From a virus (Duplodnaviria > Heunggongvirae > Uroviricota > Caudoviricetes): a DNA stretch of 21,281 nt. Location: the IMG/VR virus record IMGVR_UViG_2671180673_000012; one strand, given 5' to 3'. Made by a program: the position numbers and the translations under genes. Shown in pieces: positions 1,422 through 21,281 of the stretch (the first letter of the stretch is position 1; the number at the start of each line of letters is the position of its first letter). Below the pieces are notes generated by a model. That model was not told the origin of the DNA, searched no databases, and saw only the letters and a program-made list of their open reading frames with translations.

Positions 1422-3896
1422 TTAAAAATCAGCCTGACTCGGGATCAGTTTTTGCCAGATAACTGAAACGTATTTTGCCTGGTAACGGGCGTCATCAAGT
1501 GCATTATGGCGCTCACCTTCGAATGGAATAGCCGTTCTGGNATCGAAGTCTATGGCTTTCCCCAGCTCAACGATTGTGCGTACATCGCGATCGTTGTAGT
1601 AACGCCACGGGCAGGGGATCCCCTGCCGTTCGTATGAACGGCGCAAAATCGTGTTGTCGAAGTTGGCTCCATTTCCCCAAACCTGAACAAAAAATTCACC
1701 GGAGTTTTCGTCGATAAATTCNCGCAATTGTAACAGTGCATCATCTAACGGGATTTCATCGGTCATAATGGCAGATTGCGCTTCGCGTGATTGCTTAAGC
1801 CACCATTTAATGGTGTCCCGATCAATGACTCCGCCAGCAGTTTCCAGATCGATAGTCTTACTAAATTCCGGTCCCATATCTCCGGTTTGCGGATCGAAAA
1901 ATATTGCACCTATTGAGATGATCGGGGCATCAGGATTTTTTCCCATGGTTTCAAGGTCGATCATTAGATGGTCACACGTCCTGCTGGTGGATGTGATTTC
2001 NTGATGACCGTTCACCTTAATTGNGTGATCTGCCGTCTCGCCAGTTTCATTATCGCTATNGTGATGCTGATTGCCGNCAGTGTTCTCCTTGTGTGGATGT
2101 TCAGCGCCTTCCATTTCCTCCGGATCATCTTCCTGAACTTCAACCTGATACTCTTCATCGAATGTTTCNTGGTATGTTGCGTCGCCCATCACCGCGCCAC
2201 AATCAGGGCAGTTGCCGCCGCCGGTCTGACCGCAGGCGGTGCAGACTTTTTCCACTTCCTGTTGCGCCACTGGTTCAGGCTGTTTCGTTTCTGGCTCGTT
2301 TTGTAACGCATTTGGGCTGTTTTGTTCCGCTTTCTGGCCGTTCTGTTCCGTTTCTTGCTGGTTCTGATTCACTGAATCGCGGGTTTCAATCCCCTTCACC
2401 CATTTCGGATCATTCGGGTCGCTAATCCCTGCAACAAATTCACCACGTGATACAGCAAGCAACTTATTGGCGTCAGGCTGGCTGATATTGGCTGCCTGCA
2501 TAATTTTGTTTACTTCGTCAGCGGTAACTTTTACCGGCTCTGGTTGTGCGATCGTGTCAGATGCACCAGTATTTTGTTGTGAACCTGAGTACGTGCCGTT
2601 TTTACGTGCGAAGTATTCCTCTTTTGTGATTTCCGTAGCTCCCAGGGCCAGTGCTTTTTCCAGACCAGAAAGTTTGTTTGCGCGACCGTATTTTTCGCCG
2701 TCCTTATCGGTGAAAAGGAAGTAGAACGGTCCCTCACGCTCTACAGATGGTTCGTCTTCCACTTCGCATTCGTTTTTTTCGTTGTCCGGCATTGCCGTTT
2801 CCACTGCATCAGTTTCTGGTACTGGTGACGGGAGAGTACCAGCTGTGCCCTGATTTGTTCCTTCGTCATCTTCAAACACGCCCTTGGTAGTCAGGTATTC
2901 AGTGATGTATTTGTTCAGTGCTACGGGATCTTTGTGAATGTCGATCGGACGCTCACGGACAAGGCCAAAAATAGTCTGACGGTCGTAGCGAACGGCATCG
3001 GGTTGTTTGCGCATTGATGCGGAAATGCGCTTCCAGTCTTCGCGATCTTTGTCGATAACTTCATTTTTTGCCCAGCGATGGATGCTGCCGTCAATGTTTC
3101 CGGTATCAATATCGCCAGGCCAGAGAGCGTAGGCCAGTTCTTCATCCAGCGTTTTCCATGTCTGCTTGTATTCGCGACAAATGGCGGCAGTGACTGGGTT
3201 GATTTTTCCTGCTGAGTTTTCAGTGTTCTGTTGATTGACTCTGGCGCTGGCGAGATCAACAACAGACGTGTATTTTCCAGTCTCTTTGCGCTCTGCGTCC
3301 TGCCGTTTTTTCCAGTTACGTAATTCAGCCTGAATTTCGGGCCATTTGGCACCCGGATTACATTTGTGTTTAACCCATCCGATAGCGAACAGTTTGCGTT
3401 CCGGATACATAGCGTTAATTTCAGGCGTTTTCATCAGTGCTTCAACGATATGCCCGTCAAAGGTAGCAACGTCTTCCTGCAGTAATTCCTGCGCGTCAAT
3501 CGCCATATCAACGGTGATGTTTTCACATGTACCGAACTTAACCAGGACCGCGTTCTGTACTTCAAGGGACAGCTTGTCAAAATTGACGTTCATCGGATCG
3601 GATTCTGGTTCGACCGGAATAAAGGAAGCGGATTCCTCATCCCAGCGGTTTTCCTGCATATATTCAGCATCCCAGGAATCGAGGGCAGGGCGGGGTATAC
3701 CGGGTTTATCCTCGCAGACAAGAAATTTATAAGCGCAGTCCTGAGCAGCCGGATAATGTTCCAGGAATTGCCAGTGAAATTTTGCGCGGGCGCGACGTTC
3801 ATCACCGGCTTCAATGGCAGTGGCTACAGCGACGGCACCTTCTTCCTTTATTGCCTGTTCGTCCGGAATGGCGGCGCAAATAAAGACTTTACTCAT
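1422..3896 (-). CDS. Large early protein with C-terminal DnaQ-like (DEDDh) 3'-5' exonuclease domain and central Cys4 zinc ribbon
   Basis: 824-aa ORF; exonuclease motifs near the C-terminus (MIDLETMG ... WGNGANFD ... HNALDDA); [16 protein letters not shown] zinc ribbon; GAGG RBS 9 nt upstream of ATG at 3896; several n-derived X residues. Confidence 0.8.
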
Positions 3897-4932: not shown

Positions 4933-5099
4933 GATGGCAGCCTCCGCGATGAATTTGATTAACTCACCACCGAGGTTTTCCACGACCATAAGGGTGGTGA
5001 GACGTACAGGGGTGGAAATACCGGTCATCACGGAACCCGGCCAGCCTTGCGGCTGCCCTGCACGCCCCACCATAATGCGAATGTGGCTGTGCTTAACGC

Positions 5100-5124
5100 A
5101 TAAAAAAACCGCCTGAGCGCGGTT
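5100..5124 (-). terminator. Rho-independent terminator, leftward transcription
   Basis: On the minus strand: 6-bp stem AACCGC/GCGGTT, 6-nt loop, then a run of T; located upstream of the Rha RBS. Confidence 0.5.
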
Positions 5125-5775
5125 ATGCGCCGTGAATGATTTCGGGTTTCCACGCCCGGCACCCGTTTTATGAGGTGCAGGTGCACTATAATTCCACCCG
5201 TTCTGGTTTTCAATAGCTACATTCAACATTTTCTCTACCTTTCATCACCGAAGTGAACTTTGTTGATGCGGTGCCTGGTGCCTCCAGGTGACGTTAACCA
5301 GTTAACAATTAACGTCGGATACAGAGCATTCCCGTTACGCCCGTAAAAGACCGCTTGTTTTAACTGTTCCGCGTGCGCTGAGCCGCATTCACCGCATCAC
5401 AAAATTCACTTTAAAAAGGGCGGCAGAGCAGTCACGGAGTAGAACTGATACCGCCAAAAGTCACCAGAAAATTGATAACAGAGGGCGTTGCAGCGGAGTT
5501 GTCACTTAAGCGTATGGTCAACCTGACAACCCGGTGTCCTCAACGGGGGAAGGAATAACCCCGCCATACTTACCGCCGCGCCATTTCGCGGATTGCCACA
5601 ACCGGAAGCGCACGATCGAATTAAATTTAACGACGACCTATACAGAGAGACTAACTTCTCCGGGCGCTTTCGTGTTATGCCCTGACTTTTCAGGGATATA
5701 TCCTTTTCAGTAAACTGTCAGTGCCGGATTCTTATCCGTGTCCGGCGCACGCACTCTACCTCACCTGTGAATAAA

Positions 5776-13136: not shown

Positions 13137-13194
13137 TGCAGCGGGTGCTTGAGGCTATCTGTCTCAGGCATGAACACCAAAAGGCAGATAGAGA

Positions 13195-13265
13195 AAAGCC
13201 CCAGTTAACATTACGCGTCCGGCAAGACGCTTAACATTAATCTGAGGCCATATCTATGCTCTACA
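13195..13265 (-). ncRNA. Putative Sok-like antisense RNA region (approximate)
   Basis: Inferred only from hok/sok architecture, where the antisense RNA overlaps the mok-like start region of the leader; boundaries not determinable from sequence. Confidence 0.3.
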
Positions 13266-13312
13266 CACGTAGGTTAGCCTCTTACGTGCCGAAAGGCAAG
13301 GAGAAGCAGGCT

Positions 13313-13468
13313 ATGAAGCAGCAAAAGGCGATGCTAATCGCCCTGATCGTCATCTGTTTAACCGTCATTGTGACGGCACTGGTAACGAGGAAAGACCTCT
13401 GCGAGGTACGAATCCGAACCGGCCAGACGGAGGTCGCTGTCTTCACAGCTTACGAACCTGAGGAGTAA
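13313..13468 (+). CDS. hokD: Hok/Gef-family type I toxin (51 aa)
   Basis: MKQQKAMLIALIVICLTVIVTALVTRKDLCEVRIRTGQTEVAVFTAYEPEE: single transmembrane helix plus conserved RK(D/S)LCE(V/I)R motif; AGGAG RBS 9 nt upstream; the ORF-track entry from 13256 is an in-frame mok-like extension. The hokD/relF assignment is from recalled sequence. Confidence 0.85.
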   Translation: MKQQKAMLIALIVICLTVIVTALVTRKDLCEVRIRTGQTEVAVFTAYEPEE

Positions 13469-13536: not shown

Positions 13537-13558
13537 AACCCGCTTCGGCGGGTTTTTG
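13537..13558 (+). terminator. Rho-independent terminator (copy 1 of duplicated terminator)
   Basis: ACCCGC-TTCG-GCGGGT hairpin followed by TTTTT. Confidence 0.7.
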
Positions 13559-13569
13559 CATTAGTCTGG

Positions 13570-13598
13570 TTGACAAAAATAGAAAAATGCGAAAATAT
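13570..13598 (+). promoter_or_regulatory. Candidate promoter of the AT-rich two-gene insert
   Basis: Perfect TTGACA -35, 17-nt spacer, weak AAATAT -10, about 35 nt upstream of the 13634 ATG. Confidence 0.35.
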
Positions 13599-13633
13599 GT
13601 GGTTTACGAATTCTAAAAAAAGCGAAACTTGAA

Positions 13634-14284
13634 ATGAATGAAAATCAGTTAGCTCCTTGTTGGGAATTTCAACCTTATCTTGCTGAAAACTATGTTCGCC
13701 ACTTGTTGGCGGAGATCGCTAACGTACTTGAGCAGCTGTACTATCATAAGCACGCATTAGACAGCAACTGGTCTGAAGGTGTAAGGGCTTATGATTGGGT
13801 CAGAAATCATCTTATTCAAAATGAAGATGCAATTCCTGGCCTTGAGATGATTTCCAAGGGGTTGGACTATGTAGTTGCTTTAAATAAAGTTCCGCTACAA
13901 TTTACCAAAGATTGCATTAATAACCCCAAAAAGAAACATCGTCTGCGTCGAAATAAAGTAGAGTATGAGCAGCTCTCATTGTTTGGTGATGTTGAGGCTG
14001 AGCAAGATATTACATGGCGAGTCATAGCTGAGCCTTTTTTATCCGAAGAGGGCGATGGTGAATTAGAGTCCACACTGCCTCGTTGGGAGGTAGCTCTTGT
14101 TGGATTTAATACTTATGGTGCTCAGATTAGTATAGTTTCTCATCAATCTACAGCATCGATGCCGCTTATGCCTCTTGATTATAACACACTCCCTGACGAA
14201 GCGGAGATTAATAAGGTGCCTCTTCGCCGGCGTACGAAGGATAAAGATTTGGATGTGAGCAGTGATGGAACATCAGGTGAATAA
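13634..14284 (+). CDS. Hypothetical protein (216 aa), first gene of the insert; candidate effector/toxin partner
   Basis: Continuous ORF; about 33% GC over the first 60 nt against about 50% in flanking phage genes; no domain recognised by eye; 3' end overlaps the downstream gene by 20 nt. Confidence 0.6.
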   Translation: MNENQLAPCWEFQPYLAENYVRHLLAEIANVLEQLYYHKHALDSNWSEGVRAYDWVRNHLIQNEDAIPGLEMISKGLDYVVALNKVPLQFTKDCINNPKKKHRLRRNKVEYEQLSLFGDVEAEQDITWRVIAEPFLSEEGDGELESTLPRWEVALVGFNTYGAQISIVSHQSTASMPLMPLDYNTLPDEAEINKVPLRRRTKDKDLDVSSDGTSGE

Positions 14285-15368
14285 CTTCACTGAGTATCGG
14301 GGTGATAAGCTCAAACTAGCGAGAATGGCTGTTGGGCTTTCTTGTGAAGAGTTAGCCGAAAAAATTGGCAAGACAAAGCAATTCGTTAGCAAACTGGAGA
14401 AGGGGTGCAGGCCATCGGAGCAATGTCTTGAGTTAATATCTTCAGCGCTTATGATTAAGTCCAGTTTTCTTTTTACTGAACGAAAATACGCTCTGGAAAG
14501 TGATGTCTGCCATTTTCGGAGTAAGAAGTCCAGGACTCAAACGCTGACTAATAGTGTATTGGCCAGGGCTGAGATTCTTAATATTATAATTTCTGCTGTT
14601 GAAGGTGAAATCGAATTTCCTGACGTTAACATACCGGAGCACCCAGGGGCTGAATTACTTACTCCGAATGATATTGAGCGAGTGGCAGAAGATTGTCGCC
14701 GTGCCTGGAATTTAGGTCTTGGCCCTATATCATCAATGGTTAAATTGGCGGAGAGTTTAGGGGTAATCGTTGCGCATGTTACGGGAGTCGATGATCGTGT
14801 TGATGCTTTTACTGTTCACAATAACAGGCCTGTTATCATCAGGAACAATGTTAAAAAAAGCATATGTAGATTTCGCTCTGATTTAGGTCATGAATTAGGG
14901 CATTTAGTAATGCATGAGGGCATAACGACAGGTGATAAACTTACGGAATCACAAGCCGATCACTTTTCGAGCGCCTTATTAGTTCCCAGGTTATCTTTCA
15001 TTAAAGAATTTCCACGAATACGAGGTAAGCAATTCGACTGGAATGCTCTGGTTGAATTTAAACTTAGATGGAAAATCAGCCTTAAAATGTGTATTTATCG
15101 AGCCAGCGCATTAGGCTTATTGACCCAGGAACAGGCAAGAACTGGCTATATGCATCTTAATTCCAGAGGGTATACGAGAGTTGAACCTGGTGATGAACTT
15201 TTGCGCCCTGAAGAACCCGGCATGCTGGCCGAGGCGATTGAAATGCTGGATGATGCAACCTGGCTAAGAATTCTTATGAAAACTGGCTTGAGCCAAGATT
15301 TAATTCGTGAGTTGTTCTCCATCAACAGACCTATTACAAATCCAAGAAATATTTTCCAGATTGTTTGA
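14265..15368 (+). CDS. Fused XRE-family HTH + ImmA/IrrE-family (COG2856, HEXXH) zinc metallopeptidase
   Basis: N-terminal HTH (LSCEELAEKIGKTKQFVSKLEKG); HEXXH motif DLGHELGHLVMHEG in the central region; ATG at 14265 (ORF-track entry starts at GTG 14262). Confidence 0.8.
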   Translation: MEHQVNNFTEYRGDKLKLARMAVGLSCEELAEKIGKTKQFVSKLEKGCRPSEQCLELISSALMIKSSFLFTERKYALESDVCHFRSKKSRTQTLTNSVLARAEILNIIISAVEGEIEFPDVNIPEHPGAELLTPNDIERVAEDCRRAWNLGLGPISSMVKLAESLGVIVAHVTGVDDRVDAFTVHNNRPVIIRNNVKKSICRFRSDLGHELGHLVMHEGITTGDKLTESQADHFSSALLVPRLSFIKEFPRIRGKQFDWNALVEFKLRWKISLKMCIYRASALGLLTQEQARTGYMHLNSRGYTRVEPGDELLRPEEPGMLAEAIEMLDDATWLRILMKTGLSQDLIRELFSINRPITNPRNIFQIV

Positions 15369-15372
15369 GTAT

Positions 15373-15393
15373 ACCCGCTTCGGCGGGTTTTTT
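15373..15393 (+). terminator. Rho-independent terminator (copy 2, same sequence as 13537-13558)
   Basis: ACCCGC-TTCG-GCGGGT hairpin followed by TTTTTT. Confidence 0.7.
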
Positions 15394-15412: not shown

Positions 15413-15442
15413 TTGAAGTTTTGGACGGTGCCAGAATAGAAT
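15413..15442 (+). promoter_or_regulatory. Candidate promoter for the downstream rightward genes
   Basis: TTGAAG, 18-nt spacer, TAGAAT. Confidence 0.4.
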
Positions 15443-15477: not shown

Positions 15478-15699
15478 ATGGACCCCGAACAGGGGGAGTG
15501 CTATTTATCTGGAAGGATTCTGTTGATGAAAATCGAAGAATTACGTGAAATTTTTAGTGAAGATGGCCTCTATGCTGTGCGCGTTGAGAATGGGGGTATT
15601 ACCTACACAGCGTTAATTCCTGATGATCATGTAGTGTTATCTGTTGAGGCATTCATTGAATACTTGGAAAGACTCGGTTTCAAGGTAGTTCGGGAATAA
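15478..15699 (+). CDS. Small hypothetical protein
   Basis: ATG at 15478 preceded by GGGAG; alternative ATG at 15526 has a GGAAGGA RBS 8 nt upstream, giving a 57-aa product. Confidence 0.5.
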   Translation: MDPEQGECYLSGRILLMKIEELREIFSEDGLYAVRVENGGITYTALIPDDHVVLSVEAFIEYLERLGFKVVRE

Positions 15700-17466: not shown

Positions 17467-18284
17467 AACTGGAAGATTTACCGAAATACTACTCCCCAAA
17501 ATCCCCTGGCCTGACCGATGCATCGGCCTCAACGTCAAAAGATGCGCTGAGTATCACTGATGTGATGGCCGCGCAGGGCATGACACAGAATCGGGCTGAG
17601 ATGGGGTTTTCTGCGTTCCTGGGGAAAATGGGCATCAGTATGAATGACAGGGCGCGGGCAACAGAATTACTGGCAGATTATGCACTCAGTCGGTGCGATC
17701 GTGTGGCGGCGTTGAGAAAACTTCCGGCAGAAATAAAACCGGTAGTGATGCGCATTATGGCTTCGTATGCGTTTGAAGATTATGCCCGTAGCGCGGCGAG
17801 CAAAAAACAGTGCCCCTGCTGTCACGGAAAAAAATTTATTGAAAGCGAGGTTTTTACAAACAAGATCCAGTATCCGGATGGTAAGCCACCAGTGTGGGCA
17901 AAGTGCACAAAAGGCGTGTATCCGTCTTACTGGGAAGAATGGAAAAAAGTCAGGGAGGTGGTAAAAGTTGCCTGTCCGGAGTGTGGCGGAAAGGGTGAGG
18001 TTTCCACCGCCTGTAAGGATTGCCGTGGGCGTGGTGTCGCCATTCATCGTGAAGAGTCGGTAAAACGTGGTATGCCTGTTATCAGAGANTGCCAGCGTTG
18101 TGGTGGTCGTGGCTGTGAAAGNCTNCCATCAACGGAGGCATTTAATGCCATATGCAAAGTGACGAGTGCTATCACGCTTGATACGTGGAAAAAATCAGTG
18201 AAACGCTTTTACGATACGTTGGTGGTTCGGTTTGACATTGAAGAGGCATGGGCGGAGCGGCAGTTAAAGAGGGTAACGCGATAG
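17463..18284 (+). CDS. Late-gene antitermination protein Q
   Basis: 273 aa starting MKLEDLPKYYSPKSP; repeated CxxCxGxG zinc-finger motifs; ATGA coupling to rusA; immediately upstream of the late promoter and terminator. Confidence 0.85.
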   Translation: MKLEDLPKYYSPKSPGLTDASASTSKDALSITDVMAAQGMTQNRAEMGFSAFLGKMGISMNDRARATELLADYALSRCDRVAALRKLPAEIKPVVMRIMASYAFEDYARSAASKKQCPCCHGKKFIESEVFTNKIQYPDGKPPVWAKCTKGVYPSYWEEWKKVREVVKVACPECGGKGEVSTACKDCRGRGVAIHREESVKRGMPVIRXCQRCGGRGCEXXPSTEAFNAICKVTSAITLDTWKKSVKRFYDTLVVRFDIEEAWAERQLKRVTR

Positions 18285-18289
18285 TGTTG

Positions 18290-18317
18290 TTGATTTTTCC
18301 CGAATCTGTGGTAAATT
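18290..18317 (+). promoter_or_regulatory. Candidate late promoter (pR'-like) with extended -10
   Basis: TTGATT, 16-nt spacer, TGgTAAATT, directly downstream of Q. Confidence 0.5.
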
Positions 18318-18365
18318 TGCTCTAACGATGGGCGTTTTATGCCTGACGTTAGAAGATTTTTTACA

Positions 18366-18389
18366 CCCCGCCGCCTGGCGGGTTTTTTA
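18366..18389 (+). terminator. Rho-independent terminator (tR'-like), presumed target of Q antitermination
   Basis: CCCGCC-GCCT-GGCGGG hairpin followed by TTTTTT, about 50 nt downstream of the promoter -10. Confidence 0.6.
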
Positions 18390-18510
18390 TGACTGAAATC
18401 GCGTCAGTACAGTAAACGCGCTGGTGGCGGTGAATACCTGTCTTTCAGCTTGCTGGCTTTTTCGACAAGAGTTATTGGTGTGTCACGTTAACCGGAAAAG
18501 GGAAAAAGAC

Positions 18511-18708
18511 ATGCTAAAACAGCAGGATATGACAGAAACCGCCAGAGTNGTGTTTAATGAATTAAGCGTTACCGAACCGGCGACAGTCGGGGAGATNGCN
18601 CAGAATACTTACCTTTCACGCGAACGCTGCCAGTTAATACTGACCCAGCTGGTTATGGCGGGTCTGGCAGACTATCAGTTCGGTTGTTACAGACGCCTTC
18701 CGCAGTGA
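18511..18708 (+). CDS. Small hypothetical protein (65 aa)
   Basis: ATG at 18511 with AAGGGA upstream; the ORF-track entry from 18424 is an N-terminal extension; n-derived X residues present. Confidence 0.45.
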   Translation: MLKQQDMTETARXVFNELSVTEPATVGEXXQNTYLSRERCQLILTQLVMAGLADYQFGCYRRLPQ

Positions 18709-19957: not shown

Positions 19958-20033
19958 GGCCCTTTAGCTCAGTGGTGAGAGCGAGCGACTCATAATCGCC
20001 AGGTCGCTGGTTCAAATCCAGCAAGGGCCACCA
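19958..20033 (+). tRNA. ileZ: tRNA with CAU anticodon, Ile2 (lysidine)-type by resemblance to ileX/ileY
   Basis: Manual cloverleaf: acceptor GGCCCTT/AAGGGCC, D-arm GCTC..GAGC, anticodon loop CTCATAA, T-loop TTCAAAT, encoded CCA. Confidence 0.85.
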
Positions 20034-20040
20034 TCACATA

Positions 20041-20117
20041 CCGCCATTAGCTCATCAGGAAAGAGCGCCAGCCTTCGAAGCTGGTTGCGCGGAGTTCGGG
20101 TCCCCGAAGGCGGTCCA
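20041..20117 (+). tRNA. argN: tRNA-Arg (anticodon UCG) with atypical T-loop and one acceptor-stem mismatch
   Basis: Manual fold: D-arm GCTC..GAGC, anticodon stem CCAGC/GCTGG, loop CTTCGAA, T-loop TTCGGGT, encoded CCA. Confidence 0.7.
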
Positions 20118-20130
20118 TTATCTGTATCCT

Positions 20131-20207
20131 GCGTTGTTAGCTCAGCCGGACAGAGCAATTGCCTTCTAAGCAATCGGTCACTGGTTCGAATCCAGTACAA
20201 CGCGCCA
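20131..20207 (+). tRNA. argO: tRNA-Arg (anticodon UCU)
   Basis: Manual fold: acceptor GCGTTGT/ACAACGC, anticodon stem ATTGC/GCAAT, loop CTTCTAA, T-loop TTCGAAT, encoded CCA. Confidence 0.85.
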
Positions 20208-20223
20208 CACTTATTTTCCCTGG

Positions 20224-20246
20224 CTCGCTTTTGCGGGCTTTTTTTT
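20224..20246 (+). terminator. Rho-independent terminator after the tRNA cluster
   Basis: GCTCGC-TTT-GCGGGC hairpin (one G-U pair) followed by eight T. Confidence 0.55.
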
Positions 20247-20443
20247 AAATGTCTCACAATTCAGGCGGTTGACTGTTGTCTGGTTTGCGGGGAGTTTGTT
20301 AAAAGAAACTGGCATGGTGAATCCCCCTGTGCGGAGGGGCAATCAGCGAGTAGGTATATGGGATAATCGCGGATTCAGGTGCTGGTACTGAATTCACCGG
20401 GAGGCACCCGGCACCATGCAATGGCACATAGCGCCACTCTCCA

Positions 20444-20465
20444 GCCCCTCTCCGGAGGGGCTTTT
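20444..20465 (+). terminator. Hairpin terminator-like element
   Basis: GCCCCTC-TCCG-GAGGGGC followed by TTTT. Confidence 0.4.
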
Positions 20466-20656
20466 CTGTGCCGGATACATCACAGTTTCTGGAACCTTAG
20501 GTACTACAGTATCAGTCAGGGTGCTATATTTTCAGATGTGATGAAAGCCTGTCAGCAGGCAGGGCGTATCGGAAATGACCCAGTAGAGAAAACGTTGACT
20601 CAGATACCGGTGCTGAGTTACCGGGAAACCGGCATCACATGACCGCTATCCTTCCA

Positions 20657-20772: not shown

Positions 20773-21099
20773 ATGACTAAAAATACTCGTTTTTCCCCCG
20801 AAGTCCGTCAACGGGCAGTCCGTATGGTTCTGGAAAGTCAGAGCGAATATGACTCACAATGGGCGACAATTTGTTCCATTGCTCCAAAGATTGGCTGTAC
20901 GCCGGAGACTCTGCGTGTCTGGGTTCGCCAGCATGAGCGGGATACCGGGGGCGGTGATGGAGGGCTCACCACCGCTGAACGTCAGCGTCTGAAAGAGCTG
21001 GAACGTGAAAATCGTGAACTGCGCCGCAGTAACGATATCCTTCGCCAGGCTTCCGCTTATTTTGCGAAGGCGGAGTTCGACCGCCTCTGGAAAAAATGA
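20773..21099 (+). CDS. IS629-like transposase OrfA (HTH, leucine-zipper region)
   Basis: 108 aa: [19 protein letters not shown] ... [31 protein letters not shown], an IS3-family OrfA pattern. Confidence 0.85.
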
Positions 21100-21281
21100 T
21101 GCCACTGCTGGATAAGCTGCGTGAGCAGTACGGGGTCGGACCGCTATGCAGCGAACTGCATATTGCCCCGTCAACGTATTACCACTGTCAGCAACAGCGA
21201 CATCATCCGGATAAACGCAGTGCCCGTGCGCAGCGCGATGACTGGCTGAAGAAAGAGATACAGCGCGTATACGATGAAAAT
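21096..21281 (+). CDS. IS629-like transposase OrfB, N-terminal fragment (partial, runs off window)
   Basis: -1 frame relative to OrfA, starting in the AAAAAATGATG overlap; reads [30 protein letters not shown]...; no stop before the window end. Confidence 0.8.

Follow-up and report, generated by a model that had tools for sequence, protein, structure and literature searches.

A probable RosmerTA-type toxin-antitoxin cassette between hairpin terminators beside hok/sok in an ompW lambdoid prophage

What kind of system is encoded by a two-gene insert that lies between two copies of the same hairpin terminator in the middle of a prophage, and how did it come to be placed there? The window, by which we mean the whole stretch of 21,281 nucleotides that was analysed (IMG/VR record IMGVR_UViG_2671180673_000012), is a lambdoid prophage located at ompW and shares 99% identity over 20 kb with the EcPF7 prophage of E. 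coli. The insert of 1.8 kb separates hok/sok from the rem-DUF968-rusA-Q genes. ORFs, Pfam and the RefSeq annotation of EcPF7 agree on the order hok, insert, rem-like gene, orf94, DUF968, RusA and Q, and this is the position, between hok and the DUF968/RusA/Q genes, that the original prediction had given. Two co-directional ORFs, rmrT and rmrA, are the only genes of the insert (Table 1), and no transposase, integrase or other mobility gene is found among its ORFs. The opposite strand of the insert holds no long ORF; the ORFs of 59-68 aa on that strand are unsupported and were taken as spurious. Neither the insert nor the control region of the cassette gave a match to an Rfam RNA family.

Table 1. 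Positions of the cassette features and of the adjoining hok/sok genes in the window
Feature	Position	Strand	Description
sok	13143-13318		Rfam
hok	13256-13468		Pfam HOK_GEF
left hairpin terminator	13538-13557	+	closes the hok/mok/sok locus; outside the cassette
cassette control region	13567-13633	+	-35, weak -10, tandem repeats and leader before rmrT
rmrT (ORF A)	13634-14284	+	216 aa; catalogued RmrT family, putative toxin
rmrA (ORF B)	14265-15368	+	367 aa from ATG (RefSeq start); putative antitoxin/regulator
right hairpin terminator	15373-15393	+	intrinsic terminator of the cassette; stem recurs after rmrA where hok is lacking

The base composition of the insert (41.6% GC at 13558-15372, and 33.6% at 13558-13700) is lower than that of the whole window (48.6%) and of hok, DUF968, rusA and Q, which range from 50 to 55% (52.6% for hok and 54.8% for DUF968). 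The description of the insert as AT-rich, especially at its 5′ end, is thus correct for the insert itself, but the neighbouring rem-like gene downstream also has a GC content of only 41.9%, and therefore the low-GC tract extends beyond the right-hand terminator.

The second gene had been predicted to be a fusion of an XRE-type HTH with an ImmA/IrrE metallopeptidase, and Pfam bears this out with an N-terminal XRE HTH (HTH_3, residues 17-63) followed by Peptidase_M78 (177-282). When compared with the PADLOC profiles, its product matched RmrA (PDLC03943, E = 6e-105, residues 12-351 against 2-342 of the 370 profile positions) and 13 further RmrA profiles, while the NCBIfam search gave a sub-threshold match only, to the pneumococcal spr1629 antitoxin family. 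The HELGH motif corresponds to H209-E210-L-G-H213, and HExxH, H217, E228 and F84-R85 do not vary among 18 homologues; F84-R85 sits in a CHFRS motif just past the HTH, and a C-terminal L-x-L/I-V tail is also conserved. An alternative GTG start at 14262 gives a protein of 368 aa with the same end at 15368. The overlap of 20 nt between the 216-aa and the 368-aa gene that had been noted from the sequence is real, and fits the ATG start of the 367-aa form; an overlap of this kind suggests translational coupling of the two genes.

The product of the first gene was recognized by the PADLOC profile of RmrT (PDLC03929, E = 4.6e-25, residues 7-209 against 5-195 of 198), and its family is contained in PHROGs, where it is marked as unknown. 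No hit was obtained in Pfam or NCBIfam, and Pfam assigned no domain to any of 60 family members. An exhaustive profile search collected about 60-69 representative clusters at 50% identity, most of the proteins being about 200 aa long. Inspection of the family showed that D43 and E110 are near-invariant and that W46, G49, R51, Y53, VPxRF, Q113, W128-R129 and E133 are frequent; a canonical D...(D/E)xK motif is not conserved within the family. The RmrT profile found nothing below E 0.09 among the PDB sequences, and Foldseek returned no relative. The structural model gives a weak signal, with degenerate topology, for a restriction-endonuclease-like fold, which we regard as a lead and not as an assignment. 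Neither the sequence nor the model of RmrT shows an evident transmembrane segment. The protein is probably soluble and of the alpha/beta type. No experiment on this RmrT family was found in the literature searched.

RosmerTA was described as a pair of a Zn-peptidase antitoxin and a toxin whose function was not known, and the experimentally verified system, that of E. coli OLC-716, protects against phages and has an rmrA that could not be deleted (Millman et al. 2022, bioRxiv 10.1101/2022.05.11.491447). The cassette in the window shares with the OLC-716 system the two-gene operon with the toxin gene first and an RmrA of about 370 aa with N-terminal XRE HTH and M78 domains. The two RmrA proteins are 29% identical over 301 aa and have the same HELGH and the same downstream E..A[DN].F.S..L.P motif, whereas comparison of the two RmrT proteins detected no homology (BLASTP E 7; hhalign probability 0.1%). 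A shared RmrA with an unrelated RmrT fits the published picture of a single antitoxin scaffold that is combined with many toxins. The copies differ also in that the one in the window is a terminator-bounded moron inside a lambdoid prophage. The profile and domains of RmrA, a catalogued RmrT family, and a toxin-first operon with overlapping genes are all present, in line with the RosmerTA-like architecture proposed at first from the sequence, and we consider it very probable that this is a RosmerTA-type toxin-antitoxin or abortive-infection cassette, carried as an accessory unit in the nin region of the ompW lambdoid prophage.

The original prediction had regarded the insert as a candidate for an undescribed system, and this part has to be abandoned. 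Both families were catalogued in a defence-profile library of 2023, and, when presence was counted at a coverage of at least 80% of the 1.8-kb insert, the cassette was found in 237 of 5426 complete E. coli genomes (4.4%), strain 042 included. Among the 238 matching E. coli records, 224 are at least 99% identical to the insert. The cassette is therefore an already known kind of system, both genes of which are recognized by standard defence-gene profiles; it would be picked up by DefenseFinder or PADLOC in any run, and for this reason there is no case for following it up as something new.

The two genes are tightly linked. A shallow alignment search detected RmrT homologues in only 2 species-representative genomes and in 53 IMG/VR prophage contigs. 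In all of 55 further independent loci that carry an RmrT homologue (50-100% identical), RmrA follows directly downstream, beginning no more than a few bases from the RmrT stop. A tblastn search of RmrT against deposited phage genomes gave no match; the cassette is encountered in prophages and not among the records of isolated phages. In more distant pairs of E. coli (RmrA 58% identical) and Pseudomonas (45%), the upstream partner still matched the RmrT family profile with E of about 1e-51. Taken together, the linkage in 55 of 55 loci and the distant pairs indicate that the RmrT family and this RmrA clade co-evolve as a unit. RmrA is always better conserved than RmrT (92 versus 85%, 73 versus 63% and 65 versus 52% identity), and by this comparison the putative toxin is evolving faster than the putative antitoxin. 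The cassette, together with RmrT, occurs across unrelated prophage backbones, and the Pseudomonas pair adjoins IS elements.

Which of the two proteins is the toxin is suggested by other pairs of this kind. In the RosmerTA of phage Kita, which defends E. coli, RmrT depolarises the membrane; the two toxins are unrelated, and RmrT of the window is without an evident transmembrane segment. The pair Vmi480/Vmi470 on the genomic island MGIVmi1 of Vibrio mimicus is a validated toxin-antitoxin pair with the toxin gene first (Luo et al. 2015, PMC4671572). For E. coli E101_02645/02644, and, of these two modules, for E101 only, dependence on clpP was reported (Rousset et al., bioRxiv 10.1101/2020.05.25.114553). 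By their description both modules resemble the present cassette, having a domain-less upstream toxin of about 200 aa, an antidote of about 362 aa with HTH and Zn-peptidase, tightly linked genes and their own promoter, and the E101 module is likewise prophage-borne. A cluster look-up and a profile search for Vmi480 and E101_02645 in the RmrT family gave no Vibrio or matching accessions. Tn-seq in three Pectobacteriaceae showed rmrA to be essential, and ClpX and ClpP turn essential where RosmerTA-type modules are present.

The polarity of the pair is not guaranteed, however, because in PD-lambda-2 it was the Xre-peptidase that was toxic on overexpression, and a HigB-like protein encoded upstream rescued the cells. 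By analogy, RmrA could be the toxic effector and the 216-aa upstream protein its inhibitor or sensor. We give this arrangement very little weight, since, in the systems nearest to the cassette in size and layout, the toxin is encoded upstream and the HTH-peptidase acts as the antidote, as in OLC-716, Vmi480/470, Kita, E101 and the Tn-seq data of Pectobacteriaceae, and since PD-lambda-2 requires a third gene, which the cassette in the window does not have. By analogy with other RosmerTA-type pairs, RmrT would be toxic and neutralised by RmrA, and the cassette would confer resistance to phages.

How the cassette came to lie between two hairpins was approached by comparing the site with related prophages. 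The duplicated 20-bp terminator seen originally is exact, apart from coordinates that were off by one or two bases: the 20-mer ACCCGCTTCGGCGGGTTTTT occurs exactly twice in the window, at 13538-13557 and 15373-15392, and its 14-nt core CCCGCTTCGGCGGG was found 2 times in the window against 0 expected from 100 shuffles. Each copy consists of a G+C hairpin followed by a T run, and both are scored as intrinsic terminators (-15.1 and -10.9 kcal/mol). It had been anticipated that a related prophage without the insert would have a single terminator, and the otherwise syntenic prophage of TUM9812 (L002) represents such an empty site, with hok, one terminator and then rem. Both terminator copies of the window align to the lone copy of this prophage, and the sequence 3′ to that copy is the one that follows the right copy of the window. 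The alignment thus places the insertion point directly 3′ of the left (hok/sok) terminator.

The prediction that the duplication is a scar like that of a target site is unlikely to be correct. In variants of the cassette that are approximately 83-87% identical and located in prophages without hok, the 3′ end AACCCGC-loop-GCGGGTTTT is kept; the loops vary (TATAT, TTCAT, TGCAT, TGCTT and CATTG) with a constant CCCGC/GCGGG stem, and on the left side most of these variants carry no matching copy of the hairpin. Because the stem persists with other loops where hok is absent, the right hairpin is the cassette's own terminator. A variant of 94% identity located behind hok has unequal loops, TTCG in the left hairpin and TACG in the right one. 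At the same site, O157:H7 F6321 carries a 59-aa ORF and a Doc toxin, and this unrelated cargo, present in 125 genomes, again has the 3′ end ACCCGCTTCGGCGGGTTTTTT. A target-site duplication of the transposon type was accordingly rejected, given the lack of a mobility gene, the retention of the hairpin without hok, the unequal loops and the same end of the Doc cargo. It was probably through recombination that the cassette came to lie just 3′ of the hok terminator, and, as the near-identical hairpins would offer short homology, recombination inside them is a plausible route for the formation of the right junction. The start of the cassette is GGTTGACA, which is found 10-20 nt past whichever terminator precedes it.

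Lambdoid morons are promoter-gene-terminator units inserted between backbone genes, and the cassette resembles them in its own promoter and terminator, its lower GC content, its presence or absence between syntenic prophages and its location in the nin region. Judged from the sequence comparisons, it is a self-contained moron with its own putative promoter, two genes and its own terminator, and is optional at the hok site. What makes it notable among morons is that the 20-bp hairpin end is common to the different cargos of this site.

The location raises the possibility that the cassette is purely an addiction module, which, together with hok/sok, stabilises the prophage by post-segregational or excision killing and plays no part against other phages. 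Its direct contact with hok/sok, the presence of a classical toxin-antitoxin gene (Doc) at the same site in other strains and the description of Vmi480/470 simply as a toxin-antitoxin pair on a genomic island are all compatible with this. Nevertheless, two RosmerTA systems with homologous RmrA have given phage defence, and we therefore consider an addiction role without defence improbable, with the reservation that the one role does not preclude the other. The RosmerTA-type defence cassette remains the reading that we prefer.

The region upstream of rmrT was analyzed with regard to expression. The cassette does contain the TTGACA -35 box expected from the original prediction, at 13570-13575; the promoter as a whole is less clear, because the best -10 is a weak AAATAT at a spacer of 17 nt, and the promoter scan made no call at this TTGACA/AAATAT pair. 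Two direct repeats of 28 nt, TGGTTGACAAAAATAGAAAAATGCGAAA and TGGTTTACGAATTCTAAAAAAAGCGAAA, are located at 13567-13594 and 13600-13627, with a start-to-start distance of 33 nt, or about three helical turns. The first repeat spans the region from -35 to -10, and the second spans the expected transcription start and the leader, which is short and A-rich and has no clear Shine-Dalgarno sequence. The 67 nt from GGTTGACA to the ATG are 85-93% identical to the window, compared with approximately 65-80% for the DNA of rmrT and rmrA, and this control region is nearly invariant in 15 loci with unrelated upstream flanks. By this measure of identity, the non-coding 5′ region is more strongly constrained than the genes of the cassette. 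The simplest reading of the tandem repeats is that they are candidate operators for the HTH of RmrA, with autorepression as in most type II toxin-antitoxin operons. The constrained control region of 67 nt with its tandem repeat is beyond what the defence catalogue records, and the same holds for the lack of Pfam or PDB relatives of the RmrT family and for its weak fold signal.

In ImmA/ImmR of ICEBs1, IrrE/DdrO of Deinococcus and CapP/CapH of CBASS, a stress signal causes a protease to cut an HTH repressor, and these pairs have the same M78 and XRE HTH domains as RmrA. In these systems, protease and repressor are two distinct polypeptides with other genes under their control, whereas RmrA is a fusion and is paired with a toxin. 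The shared domains, the matches of RmrA to the PADLOC profiles of capP (E = 1.6e-14) and capH (E = 1.5e-4) and the PHROGs label of the RmrA family, transcriptional regulator, would agree with a switch of the ImmR/ImmA type, in which RmrA controls the lysogeny and lysis, or the excision, of the prophage itself and the product of the first gene is an accessory protein and not a toxin. Against such a switch, the cassette is missing altogether from prophages that are otherwise syntenic, so that the phage cycle can proceed without it, and the prophage has a separate repressor region of its own. The cassette also has its own promoter and terminator, and it moves with RmrT over unrelated backbones and lies beside IS elements in Pseudomonas. 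Thus, in place of separate repressor and protease genes, we find a single fused ORF in a dispensable cassette, always together with RmrT, and a switch of this type is in our judgment highly improbable.

For the RosmerTA-type cassette, we infer a mechanism from RosmerTA, Vmi480/470, ImmA-ImmR, IrrE-DdrO and CapP-CapH. In the lysogen, the HTH of RmrA would bind to the tandem repeats that overlie the promoter and the transcription start, and keep the operon low, and RmrA would neutralise the RmrT that is made. When a second phage infects the cell, or when control by ClpXP is lost, the M78 peptidase would be turned on or RmrA removed. One possible route is cleavage of RmrA after the invariant F84-R85 behind the HTH; the CHFRS motif and the C-terminal tail fit an ImmA/ImmR-like self-cleavage combined with RmrA levels that are set by a protease. 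With repression and neutralisation both lost, RmrT would halt the cell before the invading phage finishes its cycle.

A more far-reaching proposal, which we put forward as a tentative and rather doubtful one, is that RmrT is an effector of a new fold with release gated by RmrA and ClpXP, and that the hairpin terminator serves as a portable recombination joint. In this proposal, the release of RmrT could be set by self-cutting of RmrA at F84-R85, and the level of RmrA by ClpXP via the L-x-L-V tail, while the shared 20-bp hairpin may let lambdoid prophages exchange toxin-antitoxin and defence cargos, such as RosmerTA and Doc, at the hok site.

The cassette offers a convenient natural model for the action of a domain-less RmrT and for gating by an HTH-peptidase and ClpXP, as it is compact, has a native promoter and operator, is accompanied by natural isogenic empty sites and is present in well-studied hosts such as E. 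coli 042. If the proposal is true, RmrA levels set by ClpXP would explain the essentiality of ClpX and ClpP in cells with RosmerTA modules.

The slot behind the hok terminator of the window prophage, where the rmrTA cassette resides, also accommodates cargo other than rmrTA. In E. coli O157:H7 F6321 (locus L003), two genes, a 59-aa ORF and a death-on-curing (Doc) family toxin, occupy the equivalent position, and this cargo also terminates in ACCCGCTTCGGCGGGTTTTTT, like the window cassette. The same two-gene cargo was found in 125 of the 5426 E. coli genomes, and in strain LR-03 the slot at the hok terminator carries IS421. The position after the hok terminator looks like a small hotspot for cargo of the toxin-antitoxin type.

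A second, paralogous rmrT/rmrA pair was found in another lambdoid prophage of E. coli (CP157162.1, locus L062). Its RmrA is 58% identical to that of the window and its RmrT belongs to the same family as the window RmrT. The gene order there is DUF977, rmrTA and hok, that is, the pair lies upstream of hok, and therefore the neighbouring slots flanking hok both host related RosmerTA cassettes. Further accessory genes were observed immediately upstream of hok in the empty-site and variant-site prophages (L002 and L005), one encoding a SIR2-family protein, possibly a defence gene, and the other, which lies on the opposite strand, an alpha/beta hydrolase.

Downstream of the window cassette there is a 73-aa ORF whose similarity to Rem is confined to the N-terminal ~40 residues. 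It has a recognisable promoter (TTGAAG-18-TAGAAT) and a GC content of 41.9%, as low as that of the cassette, and its counterpart in the 99% identical EcPF7 prophage is annotated in RefSeq as a partial pseudogene.

Coordinates of features in the window and in the compared E. coli loci
Feature	Position	Strand	Remark
C4 antisense RNA	4990-5077	-	Rfam
isrK	5102-5178	-	Rfam
DicF	5418-5469	-	Rfam
Promoter of 73-aa ORF	15413-15442		
73-aa ORF	15478-15699		3' of cassette
tRNA genes Met-CAT, Arg-TCG, Arg-TCT (n=3)	within 19958-20473		before STnc100
sRNA STnc100	20283-20473		
ALIL pseudoknot	21054-21170		end of window
59-aa ORF + Doc	L003 3340-4205		equivalent to window site 13557/15393
Second rmrT/rmrA pair	L062 2364-4122		
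Accessory genes upstream of hok	L002 1694-2653; L005 2276-3049		

The first three RNA genes (4990-5469) are neighbours of dicB and lie in the prophage's early-left region. The ALIL pseudoknot is a frameshift element of IS3-family insertion sequences. Window and EcPF7 diverge beyond ~20172. Seventeen single N bases are dispersed in the window (1541-2169, 16284, 16457, 18089-18600, 19815 and 19955), giving X residues in the translated DUF968 and Q antiterminator, and suggest a consensus or lower-quality assembly.

In RmrA, encoded at 14265-15368 of the window, F84-R85 of the CHFRS motif, directly after the HTH, is invariant in 18 homologues, including the verified RmrA of OLC-716, and the C-terminal L-x-L/I-V tail (residues 364-367) is likewise conserved. 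The former is a candidate autocleavage site and the latter a candidate degron, and both possibly bear on the dependence on ClpX/ClpP that has been reported for RosmerTA modules.
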